Assembly: GCA_964352775.1 (NCBI GenBank)
Contig: CAYGTK010000006.1
Location: 1-55,117, forward strand
Length of the DNA: 55,117 nt
Source of the DNA: an uncultured Chitinophagaceae bacterium
Lineage (GTDB): Bacteria; Bacteroidota; Bacteroidia; Chitinophagales; CAIOSU01
Reading direction: 5' to 3'
Below, one piece after another: positions 14,225-43,253 of the stretch. The translations under genes and the position numbers were made by a program. Position 1 is the first letter of the stretch; each line of letters opens with the position of its first letter. The notes beneath the pieces are model-generated. The model searched no databases, was not told where the DNA came from, and saw only the letters and a program-made list of their open reading frames with translations.

Positions 14225-15211
14225 GTGGGTTTTTGGATAGCCTTTATCCTAGCCTTTACTATTCTTTTGGGTAGTAAGTTCGGTTATTTGGAAAGCTTGA
14301 AGGATGTAAGCTTAGAGGCTTTGGTATATGCTGCTATGGTGTATACCAATCTATACCTATTGATACCAGCTACATTGGCTAAGCGTAAGTACCAATCCTA
14401 CTTTACCTTGTTGTTGCTATTAGTACTCTTCTTTATTCCTATTCATGCTGGGGTAGAGTATTTCAATTATTATAGCGACGTTGGTTTTAAGGAGTCAGGA
14501 GAATGGTTGCGCTTATTCGGCTTATCGTTCATTAATTTGTTGTTTATGCTGGGTATGACCACTGGCTTGCATTTAGGCACCGAATGGTATAAGCAGCAGC
14601 AGGAAAAGCAAGAGTTGGAGCAAGAGAATCTTCGATCGGAATTACAATTTCTTCGTTCGCAGATCAACCCGCATTTCTTATTTAACACGCTCAATAATCT
14701 CTATTCGCTCACGCTAAAAAAATCCGATCATGCGCCAGAAATGGTCTTGAAGATCTCGGAAATAATGCGCTATATGCTTTATGATAGTAATGAGCGTTTA
14801 GTTCCCCTTCAGAAAGAATTGACCTACATAGAGAATTACATAGCCCTACAAGAAATACGTCAAGGAGCTAATACCAAAATAGAGATGAACATTAATGGAC
14901 ATGCCAATGGCCATTTGATAGCGCCTCTATTATTCATTCCTTTTTTGGAGAACAGCTTTAAGCACGGGGTAGATAAAAGTGCAGATGAAAGCTGGGTGAA
15001 AATAGATTTGAACATTGAGGGCGATGAACTAGATCTGATTGTTGCCAATAACAAACCCCTAAAGAACGGACAGCCAAAGTCTACTTCAGGAGGAATTGGA
15101 CTGACCAACGTAAAGCGTCGATTGGAATTATTATACCCCGAACGCTACGACTTGTTCATCGATGAACAAGAGAACACATACACCACCTCGCTTAAATTAT
15201 TACTGAAATGA
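14225..15211 (+). CDS. LytS/YehU-type sensor histidine kinase
   Basis: Four TM segments, ELQFLRSQINPHFLFNTLNNLY, ENSFKHG and GGIGLTNVKRRL. The true start may lie slightly upstream. Confidence 0.95.
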   Translation: MGFWIAFILAFTILLGSKFGYLESLKDVSLEALVYAAMVYTNLYLLIPATLAKRKYQSYFTLLLLLVLFFIPIHAGVEYFNYYSDVGFKESGEWLRLFGLSFINLLFMLGMTTGLHLGTEWYKQQQEKQELEQENLRSELQFLRSQINPHFLFNTLNNLYSLTLKKSDHAPEMVLKISEIMRYMLYDSNERLVPLQKELTYIENYIALQEIRQGANTKIEMNINGHANGHLIAPLLFIPFLENSFKHGVDKSADESWVKIDLNIEGDELDLIVANNKPLKNGQPKSTSGGIGLTNVKRRLELLYPERYDLFIDEQENTYTTSLKLLLK

Positions 15212-15924
15212 GTACACATACCTGTATTATAGTAGATGATGAGCCATTGGCTCAAGATGTATTAACCAGCTTTGTTGAGAAAACACCTGGTCTTCAGCTT
15301 GTAGCTACTTGTAGCAATGCATTGGAGGCTATGCAAGCCTTGCAAGAACAGAAGGTAGACTTGATGTTCTTAGACATTCAAATGCCAGAAATAACGGGTT
15401 TAGAATTCTTACGATCATTATCACATCCGCCAGCAGTAGTCTTCACCACGGCCTATTCAGAACATGCTATAGAAGGATTTGAGCTAGATGCTGTAGACTA
15501 TCTTCTTAAGCCTATCGCTTTTGATAGGTATTTGAAAGCAGTGAACAAAGCCATGCATCAAATTGATCTAGAGCAAAGGGGAGATGCTGCAGGTAGTGAG
15601 ATGGAACACATTTTCGTTAAGGCCGATAAAAAGATCGTTAAGATCAGGTTGAAAGACATACTATACATCGAAGGCTTGAAAGATTATGTGATGATATACA
15701 CCAGCGAGGAACGTATCATTACCTTACAGACCATGAAGAATTTGGAAGAATTTCTACCATCGTCAGCATTTATCAGGGTGCATCGTTCTTTCATTGTAGC
15801 TATTGATAAGATAAAAGCCGTTTCGGGTAATTCCGTTGAAATAGCAGATAAATTTATCCCTATTGGCAAGCACTATAAAGATCCATTTATGGCGCTTATT
15901 GAAAAAGACAACCTTATAAAGTAG
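15208..15924 (+). CDS. LytTR family response regulator
   Basis: Receiver motifs IVDDE, FLDIQMP and DYLLKP. LytTR motifs ILYIEG and FIRVHRSFIV. Confidence 0.96.
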   Translation: MSTHTCIIVDDEPLAQDVLTSFVEKTPGLQLVATCSNALEAMQALQEQKVDLMFLDIQMPEITGLEFLRSLSHPPAVVFTTAYSEHAIEGFELDAVDYLLKPIAFDRYLKAVNKAMHQIDLEQRGDAAGSEMEHIFVKADKKIVKIRLKDILYIEGLKDYVMIYTSEERIITLQTMKNLEEFLPSSAFIRVHRSFIVAIDKIKAVSGNSVEIADKFIPIGKHYKDPFMALIEKDNLIK

Positions 15925-15954
15925 TTAGCTATTTAGCTTCTGTTGGGTATTGGC

Positions 15955-15962
15955 TAATTTTG
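15955..15962 (+). promoter_or_regulatory. Bacteroidota -7 promoter element TAATTTTG
   Basis: Matches TAnnTTTG, 8 nt before ATG 15971. Confidence 0.5.
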
Positions 15963-15970
15963 CAAGGAAT

Positions 15971-17092
15971 ATGAAGAAGCGATCGCTATTATTGGTCTTG
16001 TTTTGTGTGGCCTTGTCCCAACTAGTATTGGCGCAGAATGATGACCCTAGCTATAAGCAAGGGATATTTTTATATCAACAAGGAGAGTTCAAAGAATCTA
16101 TAGCTCACTTTAGTAGTGTGCTGAAAACCTACCCTGAATTTGCTCCCGCCCACTTTTTTCGTGGATTCGCACAAATGAATTCTGGAGAGTACGCTATGGC
16201 AGAAGCTGACTTTAAGCTAGCCTTAAAACACGGCTATCCTAAAGCCGATGCTTATAGCGCTTTAGGGAACTTGTATAATCGGGTAGAGATGTATGAAAAG
16301 GCCATAACGAGCTTGAACAAGGCTATCTCTTTAAAACCCAATATGGCCGATGCCTTTAATAACTTAGGCGTAAGCTATCAAAAGCAGGGCGATTATCGCT
16401 TAGCTATGGAATACTTTAATAAAGCTATTGCCTTAGACAGTACGTTTGCTCAAGCATATTGTAATAGAGGTGCGGTAAGGTTTTACAATCAAAATGTAGC
16501 AGGCGCTCACAAAAACGACGTGCTATTGGCTATTAGCGACTTTGACAAGGCCTTACAGTTTCAGCCGAATTTGGCACTTGCCATGCGCAACCGTGCAGCA
16601 GCAAATAGAAAACTGGAGAAGTATGAAGAAGCCATTGCTGACATTAACTCCGCACTAAAGATACAGGCAGATGACCCGCGTTCGTTCATTGAGCGGGCAA
16701 GAGTAAAAACGGATATGGGGAATTACAATTCTGCTATAGATGATTACTTAAAAGCGCTACAGATATACCCATATAACGATAAGGCCTACATTGAAATGGC
16801 CGATGTAAAAACGAAGCTGAAGTACTATGATGACGCTATAAAAGATCACTTTAAGGCTATAGAATTAAGCTACCGTAATGAGGGACTCTCTTACTACAAT
16901 ATTGCTCGCAACTATGCTTTAATGGAAGATAAAGATGCTATGCTATTCTATTTGGGTAAGGCTAGAAAGAAAAAATTCTTTAACCGACGGGAGAATTTTC
17001 AGCACTTTATGGCCAGCGAAGAGTTCAAAGAGTATCGTGCTGATAAAGAATTTCAAAAACTAGCTAAGAAAATTCGAAAGTCAGTAAAATAG
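15971..17092 (+). CDS. Secreted tetratricopeptide-repeat protein, paralog of 11280-12398
   Basis: Signal ending VLAQ, multiple TPRs, and a shared NRG...QN.A.AH.ND segment. Confidence 0.9.
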   Translation: MKKRSLLLVLFCVALSQLVLAQNDDPSYKQGIFLYQQGEFKESIAHFSSVLKTYPEFAPAHFFRGFAQMNSGEYAMAEADFKLALKHGYPKADAYSALGNLYNRVEMYEKAITSLNKAISLKPNMADAFNNLGVSYQKQGDYRLAMEYFNKAIALDSTFAQAYCNRGAVRFYNQNVAGAHKNDVLLAISDFDKALQFQPNLALAMRNRAAANRKLEKYEEAIADINSALKIQADDPRSFIERARVKTDMGNYNSAIDDYLKALQIYPYNDKAYIEMADVKTKLKYYDDAIKDHFKAIELSYRNEGLSYYNIARNYALMEDKDAMLFYLGKARKKKFFNRRENFQHFMASEEFKEYRADKEFQKLAKKIRKSVK

Positions 17093-17233: not shown

Positions 17234-18301
17234 ATGAAAAACCACCCGCTATTAGCATTGCTAATGCTATTTACTTTAGTAGTGCCTTCACTACAAGCTC
17301 AAGATAATGTTGGAATCGGCACTTTAACACCCGACCCCTCAGCTGTTCTTGAATTAGAAAGCACAGATAAGGGTATACTAATACCTAGAGTAACAACCTC
17401 ACAAAGACAAGCCATACCTACACCCGCAGAGGGTTTAATGGTTTACGATACTGACTTTCAACAGTTCTGGTATTTTGATGGCACACAATGGGTGCAGGCA
17501 ATTGGCCCACAAGGCCCTGCTGGGCCAGCAGGAGCTAATGGAGTAGCAGGTGCAACTGGTGCCCAAGGCATTACTGGCCCACAAGGTTTGATTGGCCCAA
17601 CAGGTGCTCAAGGTATTGCTGGCCCTGCGGGCGTACAAGGGCTTATTGGTCCTACAGGTGTGCAGGGTGCTGCTGGCCCAGCAGGAGCTAATGGAGCAGC
17701 GGGAGCACCTGGTGTTCAAGGCCCAGTAGGTCCGCAAGGCCCAGCTGGTTCTAACGGGGCGCAAGGTTCACAAGGTCCAGCTGGACCACAGGGAGCGCAA
17801 GGTCCACAAGGTCCAGCGGGTTTCGCCAATTCCAATTCATTCGTTTATACTACTACTGCACCTTTAACACAAGCGTACCCTTCAGGCAGTACTATTAGTT
17901 ATCTATCCCTTCCAAATCTATCACACAATTTTACCGTGCCTTCTGGGGCTAACTATAAAGTATTCGTAACTGCAATGGGGTCGGCCAGTAAAACTAATTC
18001 TGATGGCTCTCGCTCATTTATTCAATATGAGATATTTCTAGATGGTGTGGGTACTGGTGCTTATCAGCGGGTTTCTATGGACGATGAAGAGAACAGTCAG
18101 TTTGCCGAAGTGCCGTGGAGTATCAGTTACATCGTAAGTGTTCCGCCAGGTAACCATACCATTCAGATAAGAGGTGCACATGCAGGAGGTGATTGTAGCA
18201 GCGGAGGAATATTTGGTGGTAGCGATTGCCCAGGAGTTGTGCTGTGTTGGACGAATGGTTTCGTTGGTCAAGCCAACATGAATGTATTTGTTCTAGAATG
18301 A
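17234..18301 (+). CDS. Secreted collagen-like fibre protein 1
   Basis: Signal peptide, [28 protein letters not shown] module, about 36 Gly-X-Y triplets, beta-rich C-terminal head. Confidence 0.9.
17504..17827 (+). repeat. Coding Gly-X-Y repeat (about 36 triplets)
   Basis: Uninterrupted [12 protein letters not shown]...GPQGPAGFA. Confidence 0.9.
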
Positions 18302-18600
18302 GAGGGTTTACTATCATAGCAGGGCTGATACTTTCGCTATTGGCTACCAGTTCTTTGCAGGCCCAGAATTCGGGTGGAGATGATACTAAAAAAGTAGTAA
18401 GTCATCTTCGAGTAGAGAAAGGAACTACAGCTGCACCAGTTGCTAATGAGCCACAACTTCAAAAACAACCGCTGGATCGCTTGCAAGTAGTTCCTGATGA
18501 TGGGATTCCTGATAAGGAAAAACAAGAACGCATTACTAACCCTAAGCTTTTAGGAGAAACTCAACAACACCTGCGGGTGGTGAAGCCCAACGACAAATAA
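18298..18600 (+). CDS. Small secreted protein 1 (100 aa)
   Basis: ATGA overlap with the upstream stop. Signal [24 protein letters not shown]. Confidence 0.75.
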   Translation: MRGFTIIAGLILSLLATSSLQAQNSGGDDTKKVVSHLRVEKGTTAAPVANEPQLQKQPLDRLQVVPDDGIPDKEKQERITNPKLLGETQQHLRVVKPNDK

Positions 18601-18665
18601 TTGCATTAAAGTCTTTGTTCATATACCTTGAGAATGGAACAACCAGCTGAATTCAGCTTTATTTT

Positions 18666-19442
18666 ATGAGATCTAACGTACTTAAATTTATTGGTGTTGC
18701 TTTATTGGTTGCTATAATTGCAACTTCTGGTTATGCGCAAAGTAATGTTGGTATAGGTACATTATCACCTGACCCATCTTCTATTCTAGAATTAGAAAGC
18801 ACAGACAAAGGGGTACTTATTCCAAGGGTTGACTCTACTCAAAGGAATGGCATAATTACACCCGCCACAGGTCTTTTAGTATACGATACAGACTATTCTG
18901 AATTCTGGTATTTCGACGGAACTAAGTGGACACCCATAACCAGTGCAGCAGGCTCAGGACCTATCGGCCCAACGGGCTCACAAGGTCCAATTGGCCCGAC
19001 AGGAACACAAGGAATTGCCGGTCCAACAGGTTCACAAGGTCCAGTTGGTCCTACGGGTGCACAGGGAGCTACTGGCCCGACAGGGGCTGATGGTGTTGGA
19101 GAGTTGACTTACGATCAATCTACCTTTTTTGTAAACGATCCTGATCTAGCAACCCTTTCTTCTCAAACCATTACTACTGATGCTGGTGCCAAAGTGTTAA
19201 TATTTGGACAGCTGAATGCTTTGGTAGATGCAAATTCCTTTATCGGTATTCGTGTTTATCGCGATGGAGTGAAACTACAAGAGGTATCACAGTCAGTTGG
19301 TGCCAATGCTGATAATCAGATAATGTTGAATTGGGTAGATGAGCCTACCGCTGGCTCGCATACTTACGACTTGACCATCTATTGGGGTACGGGCAATGTT
19401 TTTTTCTATGGTTATTCATTAGATCTATTAGAAGCACGCTAA
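18666..19442 (+). CDS. Secreted collagen-like fibre protein 2
   Basis: Same N-terminal module ([28 protein letters not shown]), about 15 Gly-X-Y triplets (18957-19091, five GxxGPTGxx units), different head. Confidence 0.9.
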
Positions 19443-19795
19443 TGAAGGGGTTCATCATCATATCATTATTGTTTTGCTCAATGAGTCTATTTGCACAAAA
19501 CGACCCTGTGACTAGCCGAAAAGCAAGTTCAACCAGTACAGTTAAGAAGGGACAACTATACCCAGCAAAGCAATTCGCAGAGCTGAATTCGCAAATGGAC
19601 GAAATGCCTAATACCCGTCTTTCGGCAAAGGATAATAGTTCGGATAAAAAACTATTTCACGTTACTAAAGAACAAGCGATGGCGCTTATGAGGGCAAATG
19701 GAAAAGATAATTATGCTACCACTAGACAACGGATAATCACGGAAGGTGAGCAAATAGAAACGACGAATAGAAAGCTTCAGAAAATAGATAATTAG
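19442..19795 (+). CDS. Small secreted protein 2 (117 aa)
   Basis: TAATG overlap with the upstream stop. Signal [20 protein letters not shown]. Confidence 0.75.
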   Translation: MKGFIIISLLFCSMSLFAQNDPVTSRKASSTSTVKKGQLYPAKQFAELNSQMDEMPNTRLSAKDNSSDKKLFHVTKEQAMALMRANGKDNYATTRQRIITEGEQIETTNRKLQKIDN

Positions 19796-19860
19796 CCTGT
19801 TTCAGGTATAAGTAAAATGCGCATTTTGTTTAATTTTAAGACATCCCAAATCTCATTACC

Positions 19861-22062
19861 ATGAACAGCAGTTCACGCACATCATATTGCCCTACTTTAT
19901 CGCTAGCATTGTTGTTCGCCTGCTTGATAGTCATCCCATCTATTGGGAATGCTCAATTGGTCAATAATAATGGTGCCCTTATTTCCATTACCGACGGTGC
20001 TACGATGATAGTAAAGAACGGCTCGGTATTGAACGGAGTTAATAATAGTGGCTACATCAGCAATGCTGGAGAACTGATAGTGGAAGAAGACATGATCAAT
20101 AACGACACCTCCACCAGTGGCATGGATAAAGGAGTTTATCGTGTTCAGCGCGATTGGATCAACAACGGAGTTTTCATTGCTGACTCTGGTTTAGTGGAAT
20201 TATACGGTGCTGATCAATTTATTACTGGTGATTCAGTTACTGAGTACCACGTATTGGAATTGACAGGCACAGGAATTAAGACTCAAACCCTTGATGCGAT
20301 AACCAATAACGAGTTGCGACTGAACGACCGTGAGCTAGCAACAGACGACAACAAACACTTTATGACCAACACGGCAACTGCTGCCATTACTAGAACAACT
20401 GGTTTTGTAAGTAGTGAAGATGTTGGTCGCTTGGTACGTTTAATGGAAGATAATAGCGATTACTTATTTCCCGTAGGTTCTTCAAACGGCACATTGCGTT
20501 ATCGCCCAATTGAGATACGTCCTACTACGGTAGCTCCACATACAATGGAAGTTCGCATGGCTAATACTGATGCTACTACCGAAGGATTTAACCGCTTAAT
20601 AACTGGGCCCGACATCTGTCAAGTAAATGAATTCTACTATCACCAGATAGATAGAACGAATGGTGTTGACCCTGGACGAATTAACTTCTTTTTCGACCCA
20701 ACTTTAGACGGTCAATTCGTTAGTGTTGCTCACTGGCAGAATCAGCCGCGTTGGGAAGATGTAGGTCCTCCACAGCAAGGTACGAATGGAGCGTTCACTA
20801 CTTTCGCCATTAATGGCTGGAGCTTTGATCCGCTGGAAGCATACGGCTTAGCGCTTACAAATCCTGATGTAGTAGGTGTAGTAACTGACGGTTTATGTTT
20901 TGGTGATAGTACCGGCTCAGTAGATATTACTGTTACAGGTGGTTCACCAGCGTTTACTTATACTTGGAGCAACGGCACTACCTTAGAAGATCTAATAAAT
21001 GCACCAGCAGGAACATATACCCTTGATGTAAATGATATTAACAGTTGTGGTAGAAGCGATCTTAGTTTTACGATAACTGAACCAACTGAAGTGGAAGTCC
21101 TTTCTGACCCTACTAGCCCACCTTGTCATCCAAATAATGGCGGCGGTTTAGGGTCTATTGATGTTACTGTTTCAGGAGGAACACCAGGATATGTTTTTAC
21201 TTGGAGCGACAACTCCACCAATGAAGACCTGATAGATGTGCTTTCGGGTACTTATACCTTAACCATAACTGATAATAATGGCTGCGCAAGCACCATTACT
21301 GAAGATATTGAAGTGCCTGATGAGCTTATTGCCAGTTTAGATTACTCGGATATAAGTTGTTTTGGCGCAGGCGATGGTGGTATTGCCACTACAGTTTCAG
21401 GAGGAACGCCAGTATATACTTATTTATGGTCTAGCGGAGATTTTACCCAGGATCTTATAGATCTTGGTCCAGGCGACTATAACTTACAATTGATAGATGG
21501 AAATGGATGTGTGCTGAAAACTTCTGACCTAGAGATAACCATAATCGAGCCTGACCCATTAGACCTTACCGTATTTGAAGATCAAACCATCTACATTGGT
21601 CAAACTGCCGATCTAGAGGCCTCTAGCATTGGTGGTACAGGAGCTTATACCTATGTATGGGATGATGCTACCACCTTGAGCGATAGTGTTGGTTCATTTG
21701 TTTCGGCTATGCCAGAAGAAACGACCACTTATACCGCAACGGTATTTGATGACAATGGTTGTACTGATGACACATTAGTTACCATAATTGTAAACACCAA
21801 TGCCTTCCAATTCCCTAATGCATTTACCCCAAATGGTAGCGAGGATAATGTTTATGAGCCAATATTGGAGATAAACCACACCTTGAGGATGATGAAGGTC
21901 TTCAACCGCTGGGGGCAATTAGTCTATGAAGGTAATACAGGCTGGGATGGTACCATGGATGGAACCCTACAGCCTACCGATACTTACATTATACAAGCGC
22001 AAGTGTTAGATCCTTTTGGGAAGACCATTGACGTGCAGCAAGAAGTGATCTTGCTAAGATAA
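19861..22062 (+). CDS. T9SS cargo with SprB-like repeats and type B (gliding motility-associated) C-terminal domain
   Basis: Repeats C.G...GS.D.TV.GG.P.Y.Y.WS...AG.Y...V.D.NGC. CTD motifs FPNAFTPNG, VFNRWGQLVY, WDG and terminal LLR. Confidence 0.93.
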   Translation: MNSSSRTSYCPTLSLALLFACLIVIPSIGNAQLVNNNGALISITDGATMIVKNGSVLNGVNNSGYISNAGELIVEEDMINNDTSTSGMDKGVYRVQRDWINNGVFIADSGLVELYGADQFITGDSVTEYHVLELTGTGIKTQTLDAITNNELRLNDRELATDDNKHFMTNTATAAITRTTGFVSSEDVGRLVRLMEDNSDYLFPVGSSNGTLRYRPIEIRPTTVAPHTMEVRMANTDATTEGFNRLITGPDICQVNEFYYHQIDRTNGVDPGRINFFFDPTLDGQFVSVAHWQNQPRWEDVGPPQQGTNGAFTTFAINGWSFDPLEAYGLALTNPDVVGVVTDGLCFGDSTGSVDITVTGGSPAFTYTWSNGTTLEDLINAPAGTYTLDVNDINSCGRSDLSFTITEPTEVEVLSDPTSPPCHPNNGGGLGSIDVTVSGGTPGYVFTWSDNSTNEDLIDVLSGTYTLTITDNNGCASTITEDIEVPDELIASLDYSDISCFGAGDGGIATTVSGGTPVYTYLWSSGDFTQDLIDLGPGDYNLQLIDGNGCVLKTSDLEITIIEPDPLDLTVFEDQTIYIGQTADLEASSIGGTGAYTYVWDDATTLSDSVGSFVSAMPEETTTYTATVFDDNGCTDDTLVTIIVNTNAFQFPNAFTPNGSEDNVYEPILEINHTLRMMKVFNRWGQLVYEGNTGWDGTMDGTLQPTDTYIIQAQVLDPFGKTIDVQQEVILLR

Positions 22063-22072
22063 ACCGACCACC

Positions 22073-23095
22073 ATGAGAGCCATCAAATACATACTTACTC
22101 TAGTTGCTATCGTATGCTTTACGGATGTGGTAGCGCAAGACATTCATTATTCCCAATTCTATAACGCTCCGCTAACTGTCAATCCAGCATTAACGGGTCG
22201 TATAGCTGGTAGTTTCCGAATTGGAATTAATTATAGAAATCAATGGCCTTATTCGGTTAATGGAGCTACTTCATTCTCTACGCCAGCTATTTCGTTCGAT
22301 ATGCCTATCCGCTTTAACAGTAAGAACAACATCTTAGGTGTTGGTGCTTATATTGTTAACGACCGTTCAGCCTCGGGTTTGCTAACTAACCTTACAGCCA
22401 TGGCTTCTGTAGCCTTTCATAAGGGGCTTGGAGCTAATGGGAATCATGCCATATCTATTGGGGTGCAAGGGGGATACATTCAACGTCAAGTTGACCAGAG
22501 CGGTCTAATATTTGGTAGTAAGATCCAAGAAGTTGGGCTTCAGAACCTTGACCCTAGCTCACAACTGTTTAAAGAACTGACGGAAACTTCGATCAATAAT
22601 GTTGACTTGGCGGCAGGTTTTATGTGGAATTCTCGTCTCGGCAAAAAGATCAACATCTATGCGGGAGCATCTGTTTTCCATATCCTTCAACCAGAACATA
22701 GTTTTTCAGGAGGAACTGGCGAATCGGCTTCTTTGCCCCGTAGGTATGGGGTAAATGCAGGGCTAGACTGGAAAGTGGGGAATAAAGTATCGCTACTTCC
22801 ATCCTTTATTTACATGAGGCAAACCACCGCTCAACAATTTAACTTTGGATTATCTACAGCTATTGATTTCAATAGTAAAACCACCTTATTCTTGGGAGCT
22901 TATTATCGCCTTCAAGATGCTGTTATTCCTTATGTGGGTCTTGATTTTTCGCGCTTTCGCCTAGGGGTTAGTTACGATGCGAATGCGTCAGACCTTACCA
23001 GTACCAATGGTGCTTTCGAGGTTTCCTTGTCTTACATGGGCAAGTATGTGGAAGTACCTTCTGCAAATCCATCCTTGTACTGTCCACGTTTCTAA
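22073..23095 (+). CDS. PorP/SprF family T9SS outer-membrane protein
   Basis: QDIHYSQFYNAPLTVNPALTG, NYRNQW, GVSYD, GAFEVSLSY and terminal CPRF. Confidence 0.95.
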   Translation: MRAIKYILTLVAIVCFTDVVAQDIHYSQFYNAPLTVNPALTGRIAGSFRIGINYRNQWPYSVNGATSFSTPAISFDMPIRFNSKNNILGVGAYIVNDRSASGLLTNLTAMASVAFHKGLGANGNHAISIGVQGGYIQRQVDQSGLIFGSKIQEVGLQNLDPSSQLFKELTETSINNVDLAAGFMWNSRLGKKINIYAGASVFHILQPEHSFSGGTGESASLPRRYGVNAGLDWKVGNKVSLLPSFIYMRQTTAQQFNFGLSTAIDFNSKTTLFLGAYYRLQDAVIPYVGLDFSRFRLGVSYDANASDLTSTNGAFEVSLSYMGKYVEVPSANPSLYCPRF

Positions 23096-23118
23096 CCCTA
23101 CCCAAACCCATCTAAACC

Positions 23119-25179
23119 ATGAAGAACATTCTTTTTCTACTACTTGGTACGTTGCTCTTTGGGACGGCATTTGCTAGCCCCGTCGACAGTAGTGACACTG
23201 CCTTTCCTGTAAAGCTCCCTTTCAAAAAGAAGGTGAAATATGCCGATAATCATTTTGAAGTAGGTAACTATTTCGAAGCATTGGAGCTTTACCAAGAACT
23301 TTACGAAGACAAAAAGGAAGATGTATATATAGAACACCAAATGGCGGAATGCTATCGCCTAGCTCGTGATTATAAAAATGGGGTGAAGTATTACAAAAAA
23401 GTAGCTTCAGCAGACGCTGACGATTATCCCAGCTCTCGGTTCTATTATGGAGAATGTTTACAGAAAACAGGAGAGCCTGAACAAGCGAAAAGTCAATATT
23501 CAAAATTTGTAAAAGCAGATCACAAAGGACTAGATGACTTAAGTAGAATAGCGAAAAGCAGAATTAAAGCCTGTGAATATGCCATGTCGTATCAAGCTCC
23601 TGCTGACCCCTCTCACGAGATCATTCACTTAGATGAACCATTGAACCAGCCTTGGACAGACTATGCACCACAAGTGTTAGATCAGAAATACTTGTACTAC
23701 TCCTCTTTAAATAACGATACAGCTACCAACCGTAGATTCATGAAGTACGGGATGTTCCTATCACATATCTACCGTTCAGAATTGCAGACGGATGGTACTT
23801 GGGGCAAAGGCGAAATAATTGACCGCCCTGCTAATAGTGACTTGCTTCATAGTGGGAATACAGCATTTACTCCTGATGGACAAAAAATGTATTTCACGCA
23901 CTGTGAAGACAATGGCAATAACTCCGTAACCTGCAAGATCCTTTTTTCGAAACGCCGTGGAGATGAGTGGAGCACTCCCAAAGAGCTTAGCGAAATAGTG
24001 AACAAACCTGAAACAGATAACACCCACCCAGCAGTGGCACAAGGTCCAGGAAGAAAAGACTTGCTCTACTTCGTCTCAGACCGTGAAGGTGGAAAGGGTG
24101 GTTATGATATATGGCATGTAGAGGTAGATGCTAACGGCCGCGCTAGCAACCTTACTAATCTGGATGCTGCCAATACCGAGGACAATGAGTATACCCCTTA
24201 TTACCATACTAAGCGTAAGCTATTATACTTCAGTAGTGCTGGTTTACCAGGGTTTGGTGGTTACGATGTATTCAAACTACGTGGAAATTCAGAAGACGGT
24301 TGGGATACGCCAATAAACATGGGACAACCCGTTAATTCAACTGTAGACGATATTTACTTTACAGCTGGGGAGAGCAAAAAGCTGTTCTATATGGTATCGA
24401 ACAGGCCTGGTATTATTGGCCTTAAAAGTGAGACCTGTTGTGATGACATCTTTAAAGTAAAAGACCTTTACAAGCCGTTTTTTGCAGTATCAGGTCTGGC
24501 ATATGAAAAAGAAGACTCTATAACGCTCTCAGATACCAAGTTGGATGCTTATACTATTGAGTTGTATGATATTACAAGCGGTACACCTAAGCTAATAAAG
24601 AAAGCTTCTTCAGATGCTAGTGGAGTCTTTTTTGCAGATGCATTATCTGTAGATAGAAAGTATAGTGTGAAGTTTCAGCAGGAAGGTTATTTCTCTGACA
24701 CCCGAACGTTCAATACGATGGGCTTGGAAGAACCAGATACCTTTAGCATAACAGGAGGCTTAGAGCGTATTCGTAAAGACAAAGCTTATACACTGAGCAA
24801 TATCTACTATGCATATAAAAGTACCAAGCTGACCAAAGATTCAGAACAAGCCTTAGATGAATTGTACAGCTTAATGATGGAGAATCCACTGATCATTATT
24901 GAGCTAAGTTCGCATACTGATAGTATTGGTTCCGATGGTTATAACGAACGCCTTTCTCAGAAAAGGGCACAAAGTTGTGTAGATTATCTCACCCTTGTTA
25001 AGAAGGTGCCACTAGACCGCATATTAGCTAAGGGCTATGGAGAAACGCTTCCTGTAGCGCCTAACAGCCTACCTAATGGGAAAGACAATCCCGACGGGCG
25101 TGCGAAGAACAGACGTACCGAATACCGAATTGTTGGTGAATTGGAATTTGGAGGTGATAAGGTGATCATGAAGCCCTAG
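23119..25179 (+). CDS. PorE-like OmpA family protein (TPR + PD40 + OmpA_C)
   Basis: N-terminal TPRs, PD40 motifs LYFVSDREGGKGGYDIW and PGFGGYDVF, OmpA motifs SHTDSIG, NERLSQKRA and NRRTE. Confidence 0.93.
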   Translation: MKNILFLLLGTLLFGTAFASPVDSSDTAFPVKLPFKKKVKYADNHFEVGNYFEALELYQELYEDKKEDVYIEHQMAECYRLARDYKNGVKYYKKVASADADDYPSSRFYYGECLQKTGEPEQAKSQYSKFVKADHKGLDDLSRIAKSRIKACEYAMSYQAPADPSHEIIHLDEPLNQPWTDYAPQVLDQKYLYYSSLNNDTATNRRFMKYGMFLSHIYRSELQTDGTWGKGEIIDRPANSDLLHSGNTAFTPDGQKMYFTHCEDNGNNSVTCKILFSKRRGDEWSTPKELSEIVNKPETDNTHPAVAQGPGRKDLLYFVSDREGGKGGYDIWHVEVDANGRASNLTNLDAANTEDNEYTPYYHTKRKLLYFSSAGLPGFGGYDVFKLRGNSEDGWDTPINMGQPVNSTVDDIYFTAGESKKLFYMVSNRPGIIGLKSETCCDDIFKVKDLYKPFFAVSGLAYEKEDSITLSDTKLDAYTIELYDITSGTPKLIKKASSDASGVFFADALSVDRKYSVKFQQEGYFSDTRTFNTMGLEEPDTFSITGGLERIRKDKAYTLSNIYYAYKSTKLTKDSEQALDELYSLMMENPLIIIELSSHTDSIGSDGYNERLSQKRAQSCVDYLTLVKKVPLDRILAKGYGETLPVAPNSLPNGKDNPDGRAKNRRTEYRIVGELEFGGDKVIMKP

Positions 25180-25250
25180 TGGCATTTATGTACAGCACAC
25201 TACCAACATCATGTCACTATCCTAAGTCCATTAGCACCAGCCGAATTATT

Positions 25251-25258
25251 TATATTTG
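25251..25258 (+). promoter_or_regulatory. -7 promoter element TATATTTG
   Basis: TAnnTTTG match upstream of ATG 25277/25286. Confidence 0.45.
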
Positions 25259-25276
25259 GTTCAACCCCACAAACCA

Positions 25277-27637
25277 ATGATCACAATGAGACCATCGATC
25301 CTATCCACTCTTTGGGTGTTTATATTTTGCCTGCTTTTCACCCCCGCTTTTGCACAGCAGAATGTAGGTATTGGAACATTAACACCTAATGGCAAGGCCA
25401 TACTAGATATGGAATCAACCACCATGGGTTTATTGATACCAAGAATGACCTCCCCTGAACGTGTGGCCATATTTCCTAGCGGCCTTACCGATGAAGGGTT
25501 AATGGTGTATGATAACACCCTTAACCAATTCTACTATTGGGATGGTACCCAATGGCTTCCATTTGGCGGTGGTGGTGCCGATGGCGATTGGACCGTTACA
25601 GGAACTGATATGTTTTCCGCTGTTTCAGGAAATGTAGGTATTGGGGTATCGCTACCAGCGGCCAAGTTCCATACTAATGGCTCTTTAAAATTTGAGAATG
25701 TAGTTCCTGGTGTATCAAATTTCATTTTAGTGGTTGACGGAGCTGGCGATGTTGGTCAGCGCTTTTTACCTGCCAATGTTTGGGATGGTGATGATGTGAA
25801 CGATGCTGATGCGAGTACAACAAACGAGTTGAACACAGCATTTAGCTACAACCCAGGTACCCAGCAATTAAGCATTACTGATGCAGGAGGTACTTTAACA
25901 GCCACTATTAATGTAACAGCTACTGCTGACCTTGATAGTGACACTACAAATGAATTACAAACACTTACTTCACTTTATGATGGAACTGCTGAGGAGGTAA
26001 CGGTAAGTATTAGCAACGGTAATAGCACCACCTTCTCTATAGAAGATGGTGATAGTGATGATAGTAATGAGCTACAGACCTTAACCCTAGTACAAACTGG
26101 AGATTCTGTAAATTGGAACTTGAGCGATGGCGGTGGAAACGGCTCTTTCAGTTTAACAGATGCAGACTGGGCAGGAGCAGGTACAGGGGTGATGTACCCT
26201 GTTACCTTGACGGATAATATCGGTATTTCAAGAAATACTGCTTTTTACGACCTTGATGTGAACGGCGATATTCGTGTGGTCGATCAGTTGATCTTTGACA
26301 CTACAGGTTACTTTATTGAGCGAAATGCAAATAATCTTTACTTCTCTTCTACTAACGATTTCCGTTTTGTTTCTGGCCAAGGGCATAATATCCGCTACTA
26401 TGCACAAGCTGGAGAGGCTATTGTAAATTATCGACTAGATAATGAAGACGTGATGACCCTTAGGGGCGATGATGGTGGCGGCGCTAACCAATTCAATGTA
26501 GGTATTGGTAATACAGCCCCTGTAAGTAAGCTACACGTAGCTGGCGATATTCGTCTTGGGGCTATAAATCCACCTGGGTTCACCAACGGAGGTAGCAATT
26601 ATGGCGACCTACTGTACCTTTCTGGCGCACCTGGTTATAATGCACCAGCTAACCTTGATAGTGAAAACTCTGACCCATTATTTATCAGTAGATATAATTC
26701 TGGGCCAGACTTATCAGAGATCCGCATAAATATTGGAGACAATACTTCTGGCGATAACACGCTTCGTGACCGTTTGAGCATAGGCGCACTAGCTACTGGA
26801 TCTACTAATTTGAATGATTACCAGAGTTTATTCCAATTCGAGATAAACAACTCAAGTACAGATTCTGATGAGCCAATGCTATCTATTAGCCCAGTTGGGG
26901 TTTTGCATTCTACTAATTATCATGGCGCACTATCATTAACCAAACCTGATACATCGAATGGTCAATACATTAACCTTGTTCGTGAAGGTGCAGGTGCAGA
27001 TTGGTCAATAGGTTATCAATACACAAGTAATAACTTCGCTATCGGTCAGTCAACCACAAATAACAGCGCATTTACAAACCCTGAGTTCACCATTTTAGCT
27101 TCAACTGGTTATGTGGGTTTAGGAGTTAACAATCCATCCTATAGGGTTACCTTACCAAATTCACCTTCAACAGCGGGGCGAGGTATTGCCGAAATGTGGG
27201 TTACCTATTCTGATGGCCGATTTAAAACCGATAGAACGGAATTACCTCCCGTATTGGATAAAGTAATGCAACTATTGCCATTGAATTATCATTGGGAGGA
27301 TTTTGACCATGATGAAAATGGTCAGCTAGTTGGTCTGGGTACAGTAAACCCATATACCGACTTAGGTTTTATTGCACAGGATGTGTATGAGCTTTTCCCT
27401 GAGGTAGTAAGCAAGCCTGAGAATGAAGCAACAGCCACTTGGGGTATTGACTATGCTCGCCTATCGGTTGTGTTAACTAAAGCCTTGCAAGAGCAGCAAA
27501 TGATGTTGACCGCTGAAAAGCAACAGCATCAGCAAACCCAAATGGAAGTAGCAGCACTTCAAACTCAAATGCAGCGGGTTTTAGACAGATTAGCTAGTTT
27601 GGAAGGAAAAACAGGCACTACTACAGCCAGTAAATAG
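25277..27637 (+). CDS. Secreted tail-fibre-like protein with peptidase S74 intramolecular chaperone domain
   Basis: Signal peptide, the same NVGIGT..P...LLIPR module, several NVGIG repeats and D.D...NELQTL repeats. S74 motifs SDGRFKTD, GFIAQDV..LFPEVV and IDYARL, then a coiled coil. Confidence 0.9.
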   Translation: MITMRPSILSTLWVFIFCLLFTPAFAQQNVGIGTLTPNGKAILDMESTTMGLLIPRMTSPERVAIFPSGLTDEGLMVYDNTLNQFYYWDGTQWLPFGGGGADGDWTVTGTDMFSAVSGNVGIGVSLPAAKFHTNGSLKFENVVPGVSNFILVVDGAGDVGQRFLPANVWDGDDVNDADASTTNELNTAFSYNPGTQQLSITDAGGTLTATINVTATADLDSDTTNELQTLTSLYDGTAEEVTVSISNGNSTTFSIEDGDSDDSNELQTLTLVQTGDSVNWNLSDGGGNGSFSLTDADWAGAGTGVMYPVTLTDNIGISRNTAFYDLDVNGDIRVVDQLIFDTTGYFIERNANNLYFSSTNDFRFVSGQGHNIRYYAQAGEAIVNYRLDNEDVMTLRGDDGGGANQFNVGIGNTAPVSKLHVAGDIRLGAINPPGFTNGGSNYGDLLYLSGAPGYNAPANLDSENSDPLFISRYNSGPDLSEIRINIGDNTSGDNTLRDRLSIGALATGSTNLNDYQSLFQFEINNSSTDSDEPMLSISPVGVLHSTNYHGALSLTKPDTSNGQYINLVREGAGADWSIGYQYTSNNFAIGQSTTNNSAFTNPEFTILASTGYVGLGVNNPSYRVTLPNSPSTAGRGIAEMWVTYSDGRFKTDRTELPPVLDKVMQLLPLNYHWEDFDHDENGQLVGLGTVNPYTDLGFIAQDVYELFPEVVSKPENEATATWGIDYARLSVVLTKALQEQQMMLTAEKQQHQQTQMEVAALQTQMQRVLDRLASLEGKTGTTTASK

Positions 27638-27727: not shown

Positions 27728-28207
27728 ATGAAGACTTACTTGATACTTCCTCTTTTAGCAATTGCCCTACTATTCGGTTTTAACTCTTGCGAAGAAACAG
27801 ACGATAGACCGCAGTCGGTGCAAGACGAAGAGGCGATCACCAATTTTTTGGAAGCCAATAATTTCACTGATAGGGCAACCCGTACTGAAGACGGCTTATA
27901 TTTTGTGATAGATACCCCAGGAACGGGAGCAAGCCCTAACCTTAGTTCTACGGTGATAATTCATTACACAGGTACATTGGTGAGCGATGGTACTATTTTC
28001 GATAGCTCGTATGATAACGGACAACCTGCTACTTTGGCTTTGGGCAATACGATTCAGGGTTGGCAAAAGGGAATTCCATTCTTTAAAAGAGGTGCAAAAG
28101 GCTTTTTGGTAATACCATCAGCACTAGCTTACGGCACTAGTGGAAATGGAAGTATTCCTCCAAACGCAGTCCTTTTATTCGAGATACACCTCATCGATTT
28201 CGTATAG
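27728..28207 (+). CDS. FKBP-type peptidyl-prolyl isomerase, lipoprotein
   Basis: Lipobox FNSC; HYTGTL, FDSSY, IQGWQKG, IPSALAYG and IPPNAVLLFEI. Confidence 0.95.
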   Translation: MKTYLILPLLAIALLFGFNSCEETDDRPQSVQDEEAITNFLEANNFTDRATRTEDGLYFVIDTPGTGASPNLSSTVIIHYTGTLVSDGTIFDSSYDNGQPATLALGNTIQGWQKGIPFFKRGAKGFLVIPSALAYGTSGNGSIPPNAVLLFEIHLIDFV

Positions 28208-39564: not shown

Positions 39565-39803
39565 TACACTTTAAACGAATTATCGTTTCTGTTCCTTCTA
39601 CACTTTATTCTCAAGAAGACAGGCAGGGATATATACGCAACTACGGGAAAAAGGTTACTATCTCGCCATAAAAACTAAGTAAAAAAGCGTAACTCCTCTT
39701 CTGCCGTGTAATATTCCCCCCTTATCCACACCAAATAAGGTAAAACCTCTGAATTGTATGTTGCCACAGTCTTAAGCCTTTTTAGTAATTTAAAGCTTTG
39801 GTT

Positions 39804-42800: not shown

Positions 42801-43253
42801 GATATTTACGATTGGAGCACTAGCGAGCAATTATCAGACCCTTCTATTTTCAATCCTACGGTAGCGCCAATAGAAAGTGCTACCTATAATGTGGCTATTA
42901 CGAACAGCGAAACTAAATGCACATCTACAGCTGATATTATAATAACTGTAGACGATTGTCAGCTAATAATACAAGTTGCAGAAGCATTTACACCTAACCA
43001 AGATGGCCGTAACGACTACTTTACCGTTTTTGGTGATGATATAGTTGATTACGAGATAAAGATATTTAACCGTTGGGGAGAGTTAGTTTACTACTCTGAT
43101 GATCCAGGCGAGCTGAATGACTTTAATGATGGTTGGGACGGTACTTACAAAGGCGAACCTCAAAAAATGGATACTTATGTGTATTTCATTGTTGCAAATG
43201 GCATCGGTGCGCAACAAACAGAACTTAAAGGTAACTTGACCCTGATAAGATAA
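39804..43253 (+). CDS. Large T9SS cargo with type B C-terminal domain (surface protein, Ig/PKD-like repeats)
   Basis: Signal peptide; CTD motifs EAFTPNQDGRND, IFNRWGELV, GWDG and KGNLTLIR. Confidence 0.92.
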   Translation: MNWGKTHVLLLLLMGFCTYANAQQIQLFIEDFEGGNQFSLNSDTNSVNTGDNRWIVNREFDGQNIYPNTTRQDSVTSGTINNAPFSRYLHIRDSSSLAQNASYNPSNASDNFAAMSNGFCTLGLRNVSLSFFYLAEGDADAYGEVYYSANNGPWVKTGAAKYNNQDIWRFVPSISDTAFQDVEDLRFGFRWVNDASTDTASISFSLDEIQVVASYDSSDANIGISIPLVLGTPVCQGETFFFQYAINQPLCNGVYRLEISNRNGGFVNPTNLGTVSLGPLDTLGFFSVPLPNAIVPDTCYRIRLIRTAPFYQVIGEQSACFQILDCPVSVETLADPVVLTDPDTACIYSAIDVQFLSFGVFNPGNLYIAELIDSTPDSNGMYPPPQLLGQLPSAETFDNPFMPGSVSGLIPLVPPGCNYYVRVNSTNPPAFGTIVGPYCLTECDVSTNNYLDLSLCISQTVGIDTAIAVDINTFDTTCYFNGNSFQAQVLDRMTLAVINTGELGVKFDTTSGQLILSVPGRDSLPFIGMKPGSFYLRIVTDSTCEDWDETGTIIRLTIGAPNDVASLAIPSDTFYCNTEIASFLIQPYNQESDYEWLASWINNGVAFEWPNNPLNVNLTGSPPGFYGIRVRENNYGCYGPFSPLTEIAIGTIPSIDITGPTEVCQGDSVTYDVLFIPETFYGWGLTWGTITDTSNNEITIVWDSVGTVDLSLTSLNQCGNGQGAYTVNISKLVDVEAFQDTAVCEGEPVSLTATTSGFRSGLTTTFAGGPSNRSGAMFDVKALDDVVIRNFSANIRKLNAAINTADFEIYYKTGSYAGSENDPSDWSLLDTANNVLLANVNSPTNIPGDLNLPLTPNRTYAFYITTSTTNVVFAMTNNTTGNSVIATDGIIEVTDGDGLNHSFIDDVSNRIFNGIVNYDTEAGLLFEWRASNDSIFNGRTITVEPFDTTAYTVSVFDTSGCSTRDKVEVVTFKYPVPVVEASDTLVCPGDVVSLVAQGGDIYDWSTSEQLSDPSIFNPTVAPIESATYNVAITNSETKCTSTADIIITVDDCQLIIQVAEAFTPNQDGRNDYFTVFGDDIVDYEIKIFNRWGELVYYSDDPGELNDFNDGWDGTYKGEPQKMDTYVYFIVANGIGAQQTELKGNLTLIR

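Follow-up and report, generated by a model that had tools for sequence, protein, structure and literature searches.

From these analyses we propose, at a probability of roughly 55%, that a cluster of eight genes in an uncultured biofilm bacterium of the Chitinophagaceae encodes a modular appendage, a plug-and-socket display of trimeric fibres on a T9SS anchor. Judging from gene neighbourhoods and from a modelled complex, the new element looks to be the link between the fibres and the unannotated N-terminal domain of the cargo. The cluster spans positions 17234-27637 of the window, that is, of the whole stretch of 55,117 nucleotides that was analysed; its genome was assembled in 331 contigs, with contamination put at 4.55%.

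Layout of the cluster and its products

All eight genes lie on the + strand with intergenic gaps of -4 to 106 nt, in agreement with the eight co-oriented genes of the first-pass annotation. They comprise two fibre genes that join a shared module to collagen, each followed by a gene for a small disordered secreted protein, then the cargo, a PorP/SprF barrel, a PorE-like protein and a third fibre in which the module is joined to an S74 domain. Upstream on the same strand are a histidine kinase of the LytTR-partner type (14225..15211; Pfam His_kinase 92.4 bits), a response regulator (15208..15924; Response_reg 83.6 bits, LytTR 71.8 bits) and, directly 5' of fibre 1, a secreted protein with TPR families (15950..17092). 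In relatives, homologues of the kinase were found 5' of the fibre genes in loci L047, L049, L056 and L078-L080, and homologues of the TPR protein near the cluster in loci L024, L035, L044, L047, L049 and L056. The response regulator keeps its position in relatives' loci and is, by synteny, a candidate regulator of the fibre cluster. A gene for a secreted FKBP isomerase is located just 3' of the cluster.

Fibre 1 (17234..18301, +; 355 aa) has a signal peptide, the module and a collagen stalk (Pfam Collagen 60.8 bits) of 36 uninterrupted G-X-Y triplets, and ends in a C-terminal tip of about 155 aa with weak leads to TNF/C1q-like lectin families (scores 0.89 and 0.85, the mark being 0.9). Fibre 2 (18666..19442, +; 258 aa) also has a signal peptide and the module, with 16 uninterrupted triplets (Collagen 28.1 bits) and a tip of about 110 aa. 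Both carry the G-X-Y repeats of the bacterial collagen-like class (Scl, Lcl, BclA type). The NCBIfam SclB, Lcl and SclA models covered the collagen stretch only, at 59-70 bits versus cut-offs of 325-500, which gives no equivalog match; the Scl1/Scl2 models carry "LPXTG-anchored" in their names. Fibre 3 (25286..27637, +) has a signal peptide, the module and a Peptidase_S74 domain (PF13884, 40.4 bits) at residues 652-718, and its start is most likely the ATG at 25286 rather than 25256 because an identical database protein has 783 aa. S652 opens the S74 domain and K657 is present, a spacing that we take to be that of the Ser/Lys dyad in endosialidase work. The stalk contains further NVGIG motifs, and the C-terminal Q-rich stretch looks, from its composition, like a coiled coil. 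No T9SS CTD family was found in any of the three fibres at E <= 0.01 in Pfam and NCBIfam scans, just as the annotation had described them.

The first small protein (18298..18600, +; 100 aa) is encoded by an ORF overlapping the fibre 1 stop by 4 nt and has a signal peptide and a hydrophilic low-complexity sequence, without any family in Pfam, NCBIfam or PHROG scans. The second (19442..19795, +; 117 aa) is likewise secreted and hydrophilic, a small protein of similar type, and is 32% identical to the first. In relatives, eight of nine gaps inspected hold a signal-peptide ORF of 91-117 aa at the place where the first small protein is encoded here.

The cargo, which we call the base protein (19861..22062, +; 733 aa), consists of a signal peptide, an N-terminal domain, three SprB repeats (Pfam SprB, 106 bits) and a type B CTD (PF13585 CHU_C 29.4 bits, cut-off 27; TIGR04131 33.4 bits, slightly below its cut-off of 35). 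The PorP/SprF outer-membrane barrel gene begins 10 nt further 3' (22073..23095, +; TIGR03519 198.6 bits versus a cut-off of 90.55, PF11751 162.7 bits), and its product presumably shuttles and anchors the base protein as its cognate partner. The next gene (23119..25179, +) encodes TPR, PD40 beta-propeller and OmpA_C regions (OmpA 62.4 bits). Because it scores 316.8 bits with NF052230, below the cut-off of 600, we call it PorE-like and not a PorE equivalog; the genome holds at least nine such paralogues (top score 439.5 bits), and this product is one of them, not the core PorE, and presumably serves as a peptidoglycan tether. The genome also encodes core components of the T9SS: SprA_N scored 492.8 bits and the first domain of GldM 114.2 bits. 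These family scores confirm the set of type-B-CTD cargo, PorP/SprF and TPR-PD40-OmpA proteins recognised at first reading.

The shared module and its association with the base domain

Over about 100 columns, 34 of them invariant, the modules of fibres 2 and 3 are 55% and 47% identical to that of fibre 1, so that the three fibre proteins do begin with a common module, as had been noted. A profile built from the three copies recovers each of them in the genome (E 1e-49 to 1e-53) and gives ten matches genome-wide. Seven of these are on other contigs, which rules out a module restricted to this cluster. The module belongs to the Pfam family PF26696 (PTL_trimer, "Phage tail like trimerisation region"): PF26696.1 is precomputed on the database protein identical to fibre 3 and on most relatives, and the fibre 1 module has language-model look-alikes of this family at 0.92 and 0.91. 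The family holds 58,976 representative clusters, and its proteins often carry 3-13 module copies, and often carry them internally. On contig C93 a prophage-like fibre has the module C-terminally, and on contig C321 it follows a collagen stretch. A literature search for the family found no paper. We read the module as a general trimerisation domain rather than a tag reserved for docking, and a plug for a T9SS cargo by way of its N-terminal face is outside what the name PTL_trimer implies.

Residues 31-345 of the base protein are predicted to form a right-handed beta-helix plus a beta-sandwich (AF2, 20-row alignment; pLDDT 91, pTM 0.88). For residues 30-345 we found no Pfam family, in the local scan or in relatives' precomputed annotations, and the domain gave no Foldseek match at E <= 0.001. 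It resembles adhesin beta-helices at Z-scores of about 10 (Awp1 10.4, Hbp 10.1, HMW1 9.5). A search recovered it from all 17 genomes of the same family.

Among 41 related genomes, 25 of 56 base-domain genes (counted at E <= 1e-16) have a listed module match within 8 kb. The chance expectation is about 2.4% (207 module matches in about 149 Mb) and the observed adjacency is enriched about 20-fold, these counts overstating independence because the compared genomes are related to each other. The loci listed by title all come from MAGs or uncultured isolates. In the named MAGs a module gene lies within 1.6 kb at 17 of 34 base loci, at seven more a collagen or S74-like gene directly upstream is truncated where the contig or locus stops, and the remaining ten are without any flanking fibre gene. 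Three module loci that we counted as non-adjacent (L078-L080) are pieces of an HK-LytTR-collagen operon reaching contig ends, and are probably parts of base loci cut by assembly. Pairing of base and module was also seen in shorter paralogues without a flanking PorP gene (L029, L034, L040), for bases whose CTD is of type A (L057, L058) and, in this genome, in a second, diverged pair on contig C110; the adjacency recurs across several orders. In relatives the fibre set varies while the cargo/PorP/PorE-like base is constant. Four other PorP plus PorE-like pairs of this genome (C10, C96, C224, C188) have no module match on their contigs. The co-occurrence check suggested at first reading came out in favour, with the cargo's N-terminal domain occurring beside module genes far above chance; the fibre linkage is to the N-terminal beta-helix of the cargo and not to PorP/PorE-like proteins as such.

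Seen from the module, only 34 of the 150 matches listed have a base-domain gene no more than 8 kb away. Seventeen orphan module genes that we retrieved are laid out like the fibres at their N-termini and have no base gene nearby, so the N-terminal position of the module does not discriminate. In a phylum sample of 301 genomes, the module was present in 61 (E <= 1e-8) and the base domain in four (E <= 1e-15, with only seven candidates scored per genome), and most such fibres must therefore manage without this base. A module that is so widespread, repeated and internal, that is named for trimerisation and that mostly has no base neighbour would fit proteins that are co-regulated and physically independent. 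The base would then be a plain adhesin anchored by its PorP/PorE-like partners, as its likeness to adhesin beta-helices suggests, the module would only trimerise and nucleate the stalks, the fibres would leave the cell, if at all, by an unrelated route and any junction with the base would be a modelling artefact. We regard this as a possible reading and yet a doubtful one, given the adjacency enrichment, which recurs in several orders and in paralogous loci that differ in CTD type.

The predicted junction and its alternatives

The mature fibres would begin with Q-D-NVGIGT (fibre 1), Q-S-NVGIGT (fibre 2) and Q-Q-NVGIGT (fibre 3), and every adjacent module protein with a visible N-terminus opens with a signal peptide followed by Q-x-NVGIGT or a near variant of it, L070 being the sole exception. 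Such strong conservation of the mature N-terminus also speaks against independent proteins. Modelled with the base domain, the three modules reached ipSAE values of 0.92, 0.91 and 0.92 versus 0.18, 0.00 and 0.00 for the controls, at a mark that 58 solved complexes out of 80, and two mismatched pairs out of 110, attained; the job departs from the tool's calibration in its 3:1 stoichiometry and custom alignments, a point on the side of independence. The module trimer with base N-terminal domain, suggested as a check at first reading, thus passed. The runs share at least 95% of their contacts with partner pLDDT of at least 93, and the three module copies were folded together at pLDDT 89-90, only the interface with the base partner being scored. 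To the modelled interface each fibre copy contributes residues 1-12 and 17, and the base residues 1-24, 27, 30, 33, 37 and 43, so that in the model the mature N-termini of all three fibre chains lie on the first beta-helix rung of the base. An interface made of exactly both mature N-termini, with such a distance from the controls, argues further against physical independence. A memorised pass looks unlikely because the module and fibre 3 have no solved relative by sequence search and the base domain has no Foldseek match. Exposed beta-edges, as a general matter, may be stacked by the model regardless of real binding.

In the plug-and-socket display that we favour, homology suggests that the type B CTD would direct the base protein out through the T9SS, that the cognate PorP/SprF barrel would keep it on the outer membrane and that the PorE-like OmpA protein would tie this barrel to peptidoglycan. 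The base protein would project its SprB repeats and end distally in a three-sided beta-helix, the first rung of which would be the mature N-terminus. Each fibre would trimerise through its N-terminal PTL_trimer module, with the S74 domain of fibre 3 perhaps acting as a self-cleaving chaperone, and the three mature Q-x-NVGIGT strands would stack, one per face, on this first rung in a 3:1 end-to-end junction. The variable tips would face outwards as binding ends. The fibres might compete for or alternate on one socket, and orphan fibres encoded elsewhere, for example on contig C27, may use the socket in trans. We infer that the fibres are exposed at the surface and depend on the T9SS. Their export is a more speculative matter: perhaps the CTD-less fibres are carried piggyback, folding in the periplasm, plugging into the CTD carrier, passing the T9SS as passengers and staying mounted, with a few sockets serving neighbours and orphans. 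We offer this only tentatively and think it rather unlikely.

Identical contacts would be predicted if the base domain bound the fibre N-termini transiently in the periplasm, as an assembly chaperone or a cap against premature association and not as the final anchor. The small disordered secreted proteins after each collagen gene could serve such an assembly pathway, as could the FKBP isomerase, although its gene was not found in the relatives' loci compared. Since a T9SS CTD is present in nearly all base homologues examined, the base itself seems destined for the surface, and we consider a transient role improbable.

Relation to known systems and meaning

The C-terminal PF13884 domain of fibre 3, with Ser and Lys five residues apart, recalls the C-terminal intramolecular chaperone of phage tail fibres and endosialidase-type tailspikes and matches phage tail fibres, and all three fibre proteins match PHROG tail-fibre families. 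Together with the module copy in a prophage-like region on C93, this might make the fibres prophage or tailocin remnants lying beside a T9SS cargo operon by chance. We hold this to be very improbable: each of the three fibres carries a Sec signal peptide, the scans of the cluster turned up no further phage gene, members of the family keep the gene order together with a chromosomal two-component system, and only eight phage records match fibre 3, over 9-19% of its length. Fibre 3 further differs from tail fibres in being chromosomal and in having an N-terminal PTL_trimer instead of a virion-binding domain. Membership in a phage or tailocin structural module was ruled out for it on the absence of phage genes, the Sec signal and the conserved chromosomal synteny.

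In the nap of the Bacillus exosporium, BclA is a collagen-like trimer whose N-terminal domain is attached to a basal-layer protein. The proposed display is alike in its collagen-like trimer, globular C-terminal tip and N-terminal end fixed to a base protein. It differs in that BclA belongs to a spore and not to a Gram-negative outer membrane, that the domains are unrelated and that the junction here would be, in the model, a non-covalent stacking of beta-strands on a beta-helix monomer. Monomer-on-trimer junctions are known from PAAR on the VgrG trimer and from gp35 in the T4 long tail fibre, where one polypeptide presenting three similar faces sits as a cap or connector at the end of a beta-structure with three-fold symmetry. 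The likeness is one of arrangement rather than of demonstrated kinship in sequence or fold, and in our case the single chain is a T9SS cargo and its trimeric partner has a Sec signal.

As described in the available text of two papers, type B cargo is anchored through PorP-like proteins and porP-like genes lie beside porE-like genes (PMC9143113), and there are cognate shuttles and static foci (PMC12618676). In the model published there, PorP-PorE-like complexes fasten non-mobile type B cargo to the cell wall (PMC9143113; PMC12618676). Porphyromonas gingivalis PG1035-PorP-PorE and gene groups of Flavobacterium johnsoniae place a type B CTD cargo beside its own PorP/SprF and a TPR/beta-propeller/OmpA protein, as here (PMC9143113; PMC12618676). 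The cargo/PorP/PorE-like triad is thus a known arrangement by the available account (PMC9143113), although the PorE-like protein here is below cut-off and one of at least nine paralogues. The accounts of these systems in the same texts (PMC9143113; PMC12618676) describe no CTD-less client proteins, whereas here fibres accompany the cargo, and genome context and the model would couple the distal beta-helix of the cargo to trimeric fibres.

The first-pass annotation had proposed that the module docks interchangeable fibres on a cargo/PorP base and had known of no characterised system like it. The adjacency, the model and the variable fibres support the docking; the dedicated role of the module did not survive, since it is general. 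The linkage is to the beta-helix of the cargo, and most module genes have no base gene beside them. The novelty was likewise narrowed by the described triad and by PF26696, and it is the link between fibres and base domain that, as far as the available texts go, looks new. If the piggyback reading were true, Bacteroidota would have a plug-and-socket display of interchangeable adhesive fibres, and a surface route would be explained for the very numerous "tail fiber domain-containing" proteins that have no sorting domain. The mounting of fibres on a T9SS cargo would be an undescribed way of surface attachment.

The eight-gene cluster and its presumed anchor

Eight plus-strand genes lie between positions 17234 and 27637 of the window at spacings of -4 to 106 nt, and both the gene layout and the family matches bear out the cluster that the first-pass annotation had described. 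The first and third genes encode fibre 1 (17234-18301, 355 aa) and fibre 2 (18666-19442, 258 aa). In both, a signal peptide and a module of about 65 aa common to the fibres precede a run of G-X-Y triplets (36 and 16; Pfam Collagen, 60.8 and 28.1 bits respectively) and a C-terminal tip of 110-155 aa. Each of them is overlapped, by 4 nt and 1 nt respectively, by a gene for a small protein (small protein 1, 18298-18600, 100 aa; small protein 2, 19442-19795, 117 aa) with a signal peptide followed by hydrophilic, low-complexity sequence. The base protein (19861-22062, 733 aa) combines three SprB repeats with a type B CTD, which scored 29.4 bits with CHU_C (cut-off 27) and 33.4 bits with TIGR04131 (cut-off 35). 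It is followed by a PorP/SprF barrel (22073-23095; TIGR03519, 198.6 bits) and by a TPR/PD40/OmpA protein (23119-25179) that we call PorE-like, its 316.8 bits with the PorE model being below the cut-off of 600. The last gene encodes fibre 3, which ends at 27637 and most likely starts at 25286, because the identical database protein is 783 aa long. It contains the module, further NVGIG motifs, a Peptidase_S74 domain (40.4 bits; S652 at its start, followed by K657) and, at the C-terminus, Q-rich sequence resembling a coiled coil. Searches of Pfam and NCBIfam at E <= 0.01 found no T9SS CTD family in any of the three fibres.

The T9SS core genes SprA and GldM are present in the genome, an assembly of 331 contigs (96.7% complete, 4.55% contamination) from which alone the organism is known. 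Four DNA runs, all from one biofilm-metagenome study, contain 0.10-0.44 of the words sampled from the stretch, and no RNA run was listed. A promoter and terminator scan of the window showed no enrichment using a sigma-70 consensus, which is unsuited to Bacteroidota.

PMC9143113 describes type B CTD proteins as anchored through association with PorP-like proteins, reports six porP-like genes adjoining porE-like genes in F. johnsoniae, and postulates that PorP-PorE-like complexes tie non-mobile type B cargo to the wall; the triad of cargo, PorP/SprF and PorE-like protein in this cluster matches that published arrangement. For one type B cargo, PMC12618676 shows cognate shuttles and static foci. 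The paralogues are greatly expanded in the source genome, with 16-17 PorP/SprF matches, at least nine PorE-like paralogues (none above the PorE cut-off) and PorP and PorE-like pairs on contigs C6, C10, C96, C188 and C224. No module match was found on the contigs of the other PorP and PorE-like loci (C10, C96, C188 and C224). The triad and the module family are both already known.

A widespread module and a restricted base domain

The module copies of the three fibres share 34 invariant columns and belong to PF26696 (PTL_trimer); PF26696.1 is the precomputed annotation of the protein identical to fibre 3 and of most of its relatives, and look-alikes of the module in the protein atlas, scoring 0.92 and 0.91, are named 'Phage tail like trimerisation region'. 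The idea that the module is private to this locus did not hold, as a profile search of the source genome gave 10 copies, among them three in tandem genes on C307, one on C110, one on C27 and one on C321 placed after a collagen stretch. Searched with a profile, a set of 1.84 billion representatives yielded 58,976 matches at E <= 0.001, counted as clusters at 50% identity, of which 39,974 remained at E <= 1e-10. Among the 150 top-scoring module proteins, many carry 3-13 copies at internal positions. On these grounds the module is a general building block of trimeric fibres. Neither fibre 3 nor the module profile gave a meaningful match when searched against PDB sequences, and among phages a tblastn search of fibre 3 hit just 8 records, covering 9-19% of its length. 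The collection of papers that we searched contained none on PF26696 or PTL_trimer, and nothing on phage-tail-like trimerisation in Bacteroidota.

Two other layouts were observed in the source genome. A prophage-like region (C93:11475-15594) encodes a 431-aa tail-fibre-like protein in which the module sits at the very C-terminal end, opposite to its place in the cellular proteins. Other module proteins form a second class: once mature they begin with Q-G-VK(I/V)S, and they finish in a Cys-rich C-terminal domain whose last residues are ...C(F/V)EQ. The 3.2-kb contig C307 carries three of these in tandem over its whole length, and one plus a fragment (C110:12418-14176) adjoin a 559-aa base-domain paralogue with a type A-like CTD.

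No Pfam family was assigned to the base domain (residues 31-345 of the base protein, mature residues 1-315), whether by a local scan or by the precomputed annotations for the 120 relatives listed, among which it is combined with a type B CTD, a type A CTD or, rarely, no recognised CTD. The base domain is restricted in range across the phylum, being present in 4 of 301 genomes of an evenly drawn sample (E <= 1e-15, 7 candidates scored per genome), and the module was found in 61 of the same 301 (E <= 1e-8). The two are adjacent in one (G057) of the three other base-positive genomes of that sample. Closer to the source genome, the base domain is present in 17/17 genomes of the same family and in 28/41 relatives, source genome counted. 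The counts of this comparison, those of adjacency included, overstate independence because the compared genomes are mutually related.

The first-pass annotation had proposed looking for genomic co-occurrence of the module with the type B system, and with respect to the base domain this was found. A module match was listed within 8 kb of 25 of 56 base-domain matches (E <= 1e-16), compared with about 2.4% expected by chance from our own arithmetic (207 module matches in ~149 Mb). The figure of 25 is a lower bound, both because 57 module matches were unlisted and because at least three module loci scored as non-adjacent (L078-L080) are pieces of an HK-LytTR-collagen operon that end at contig ends. 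In a second set of 34 loci from MAGs of Chitinophagales, Flavobacteriales and other Bacteroidia, a module gene lies within 1.6 kb of the base domain in 17; in a further 7 the gene immediately upstream is collagen or S74-like and is truncated where the contig or locus stops, and no fibre gene was found beside the base in the remaining 10.

Thirteen fetched loci contain the full triad, and a fibre gene flanks it in all 13, with varying fibre identity. Collagen genes are upstream in 9/13, two of which end at contig ends with the N-terminal module out of view, and an S74 fibre is downstream in 4/13; among these loci only this window has both. Shorter base-domain paralogues without an adjoining PorP gene (L029, L034, L040) are also beside module genes, as is the paralogue on C110, which is 28% identical and has a type A-like CTD. 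The fibres are thus linked to mature residues 1-315 of the base protein, rather than to the PorP and PorE-like pairs.

This link is not exclusive from the side of the module, since only 34 of the 150 module matches listed lie near a base gene. Seventeen orphan module genes that we fetched, none of them near a base gene, encode a signal peptide followed by Q-x-NVGIGT. As these 17 orphans share the layout, an N-terminal module was rejected as a mark of base-linked fibres.

A predicted junction between three fibre chains and one base

The base domain was folded by AF2 from a 20-row alignment with a pLDDT of 91 and a pTM of 0.88 (a single-sequence prediction of the entire 733-aa protein was discarded at pLDDT 32.8). 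The predicted fold is a right-handed beta-helix from mature residue 4 followed by a beta-sandwich. Comparison by VIA-align returned generic beta-helices of adhesins and tailspikes at Z about 7-10 (Awp1 10.4, Hbp 10.1, HMW1 9.5), and therefore we assign no enzymatic function to the domain. A form without CTD was observed in one MAG (L053:6777-8081, 434 aa), near a 1040-aa CUB-domain protein (L053:9174-12296); both terminate in ...SPL(Y/F)HD, which may be an unrecognised C-terminal sorting signal.

Modelling a module trimer with the N-terminal domain of the base protein had also been suggested by the first-pass annotation, and the outcome favoured a complex. Three module copies (10-row alignment) folded together with one base domain (20-row alignment) scored 0.92, 0.91 and 0.92, against 0.18, 0.00 and 0.00 for the controls, with at least 95% contact agreement between runs and a partner pLDDT of at least 93. 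In the calibration of the tool the mark was reached by 58/80 solved complexes and by 2/110 mismatched pairs, figures that apply only roughly here because of the 3:1 stoichiometry and our own alignments. Memorisation by the predictor is an unlikely source of these scores, because sequence searches turned up no solved relative of either partner and, for the base domain, Foldseek returned no PDB entry at E <= 0.001.

The modelled interface is specific: every fibre copy contributes residues 1-12 and 17, its mature N-terminal strand, and the base contributes residues 1-24, 27, 30, 33, 37 and 43. In the model each face of the first beta-helix rung takes one fibre chain, base residues 4-6 being paired with copy 3, 10-14 with copy 2 and 19-22 with copy 1. 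As both chains were cut at predicted signal-peptidase sites, it is their mature N-termini that meet in the modelled contact. Adjacent fibres with a visible start all conserve the mature fibre N-terminus, except that of L070, and in the source genome four proteins have it, namely fibres 1-3 and the orphan on C27.

Flanking genes and the proposed appendage

The two small, disordered proteins are 32% identical to each other and matched no family in Pfam, NCBIfam or PHROG. In 8 of 9 relatives' gaps examined, a gene of 91-117 aa with a signal peptide and hydrophilic, low-complexity sequence follows the collagen fibre gene; these are positional counterparts only, phmmer having found no sequence homologues in relatives at 1e-4. 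In several relatives among L024-L028, L033, L036 and L037, the small protein ends in an acidic tail (...KKEDE, ...KKDDE). The stretch directly upstream of the fibre genes (14225-17092) encodes a His_kinase paired with a LytTR response regulator, as well as a TPR protein that is secreted. The kinase-regulator pair also precedes fibre genes in L047, L049, L056 and L078-L080, and this synteny makes it a candidate for a dedicated regulator of the cluster.

A putative FKBP-type prolyl isomerase lipoprotein is encoded 90 nt downstream of fibre 3 (27728-28207), a position of some interest since collagen folding depends on prolyl isomerisation and the SprA translocon structure was solved with a bound isomerase (PMC9251779). 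A phmmer search at 1e-4 found no synteny of this gene in the relatives' loci. Further downstream are two more type B CTD proteins (39798-43253, 1151 aa, and 43256-45985, 909 aa; CHU_C 53 and 42 bits) with no PorP/SprF match beside them, followed by a gene for a 351-aa protein (46060-47115) with no Pfam family.

By homology, the base would be a T9SS type B cargo held by the PorP-like barrel and tied to peptidoglycan by the PorE-like protein. The model and the gene neighbourhood suggest that its distal beta-helix receives the fibre trimers end-on, as a socket does a plug, giving a linear appendage in the order anchor, SprB repeats, socket, stalk and variable tip. We put the probability that the fibres dock on the anchored base at roughly 55%. 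Fibres might alternate on one socket, and orphan fibres might use it in trans. Analogous cases may be the BclA nap of the Bacillus exosporium, PAAR seated on VgrG and gp35 of the T4 long fibre.

The T9SS translocates folded proteins (PMC9251779), and therefore the fibres could conceivably be exported piggyback on the CTD of the base, a step that we consider rather doubtful. In the papers that we searched there was no report of piggyback or hitchhiker export by the T9SS, nothing on the T9SS together with collagen-like or tail-fibre-like proteins, no T9SS cargo whose unannotated beta-helix head is coupled to fibres without CTD and no 3:1 end-on junction.

In its predicted 3:1 form, the junction seats a trimer on a monomeric beta-helix with three sides; such an interface is simple and mutable and might be reusable for surface display. 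T9SS cargo is currently defined by its own C-terminal sorting domain. If fibres without a CTD are indeed displayed or exported by docking, the substrates of the T9SS would include non-covalent passengers, and a very large class of Bacteroidota proteins, the 58,976 clusters of PF26696, would gain a candidate route to the surface.
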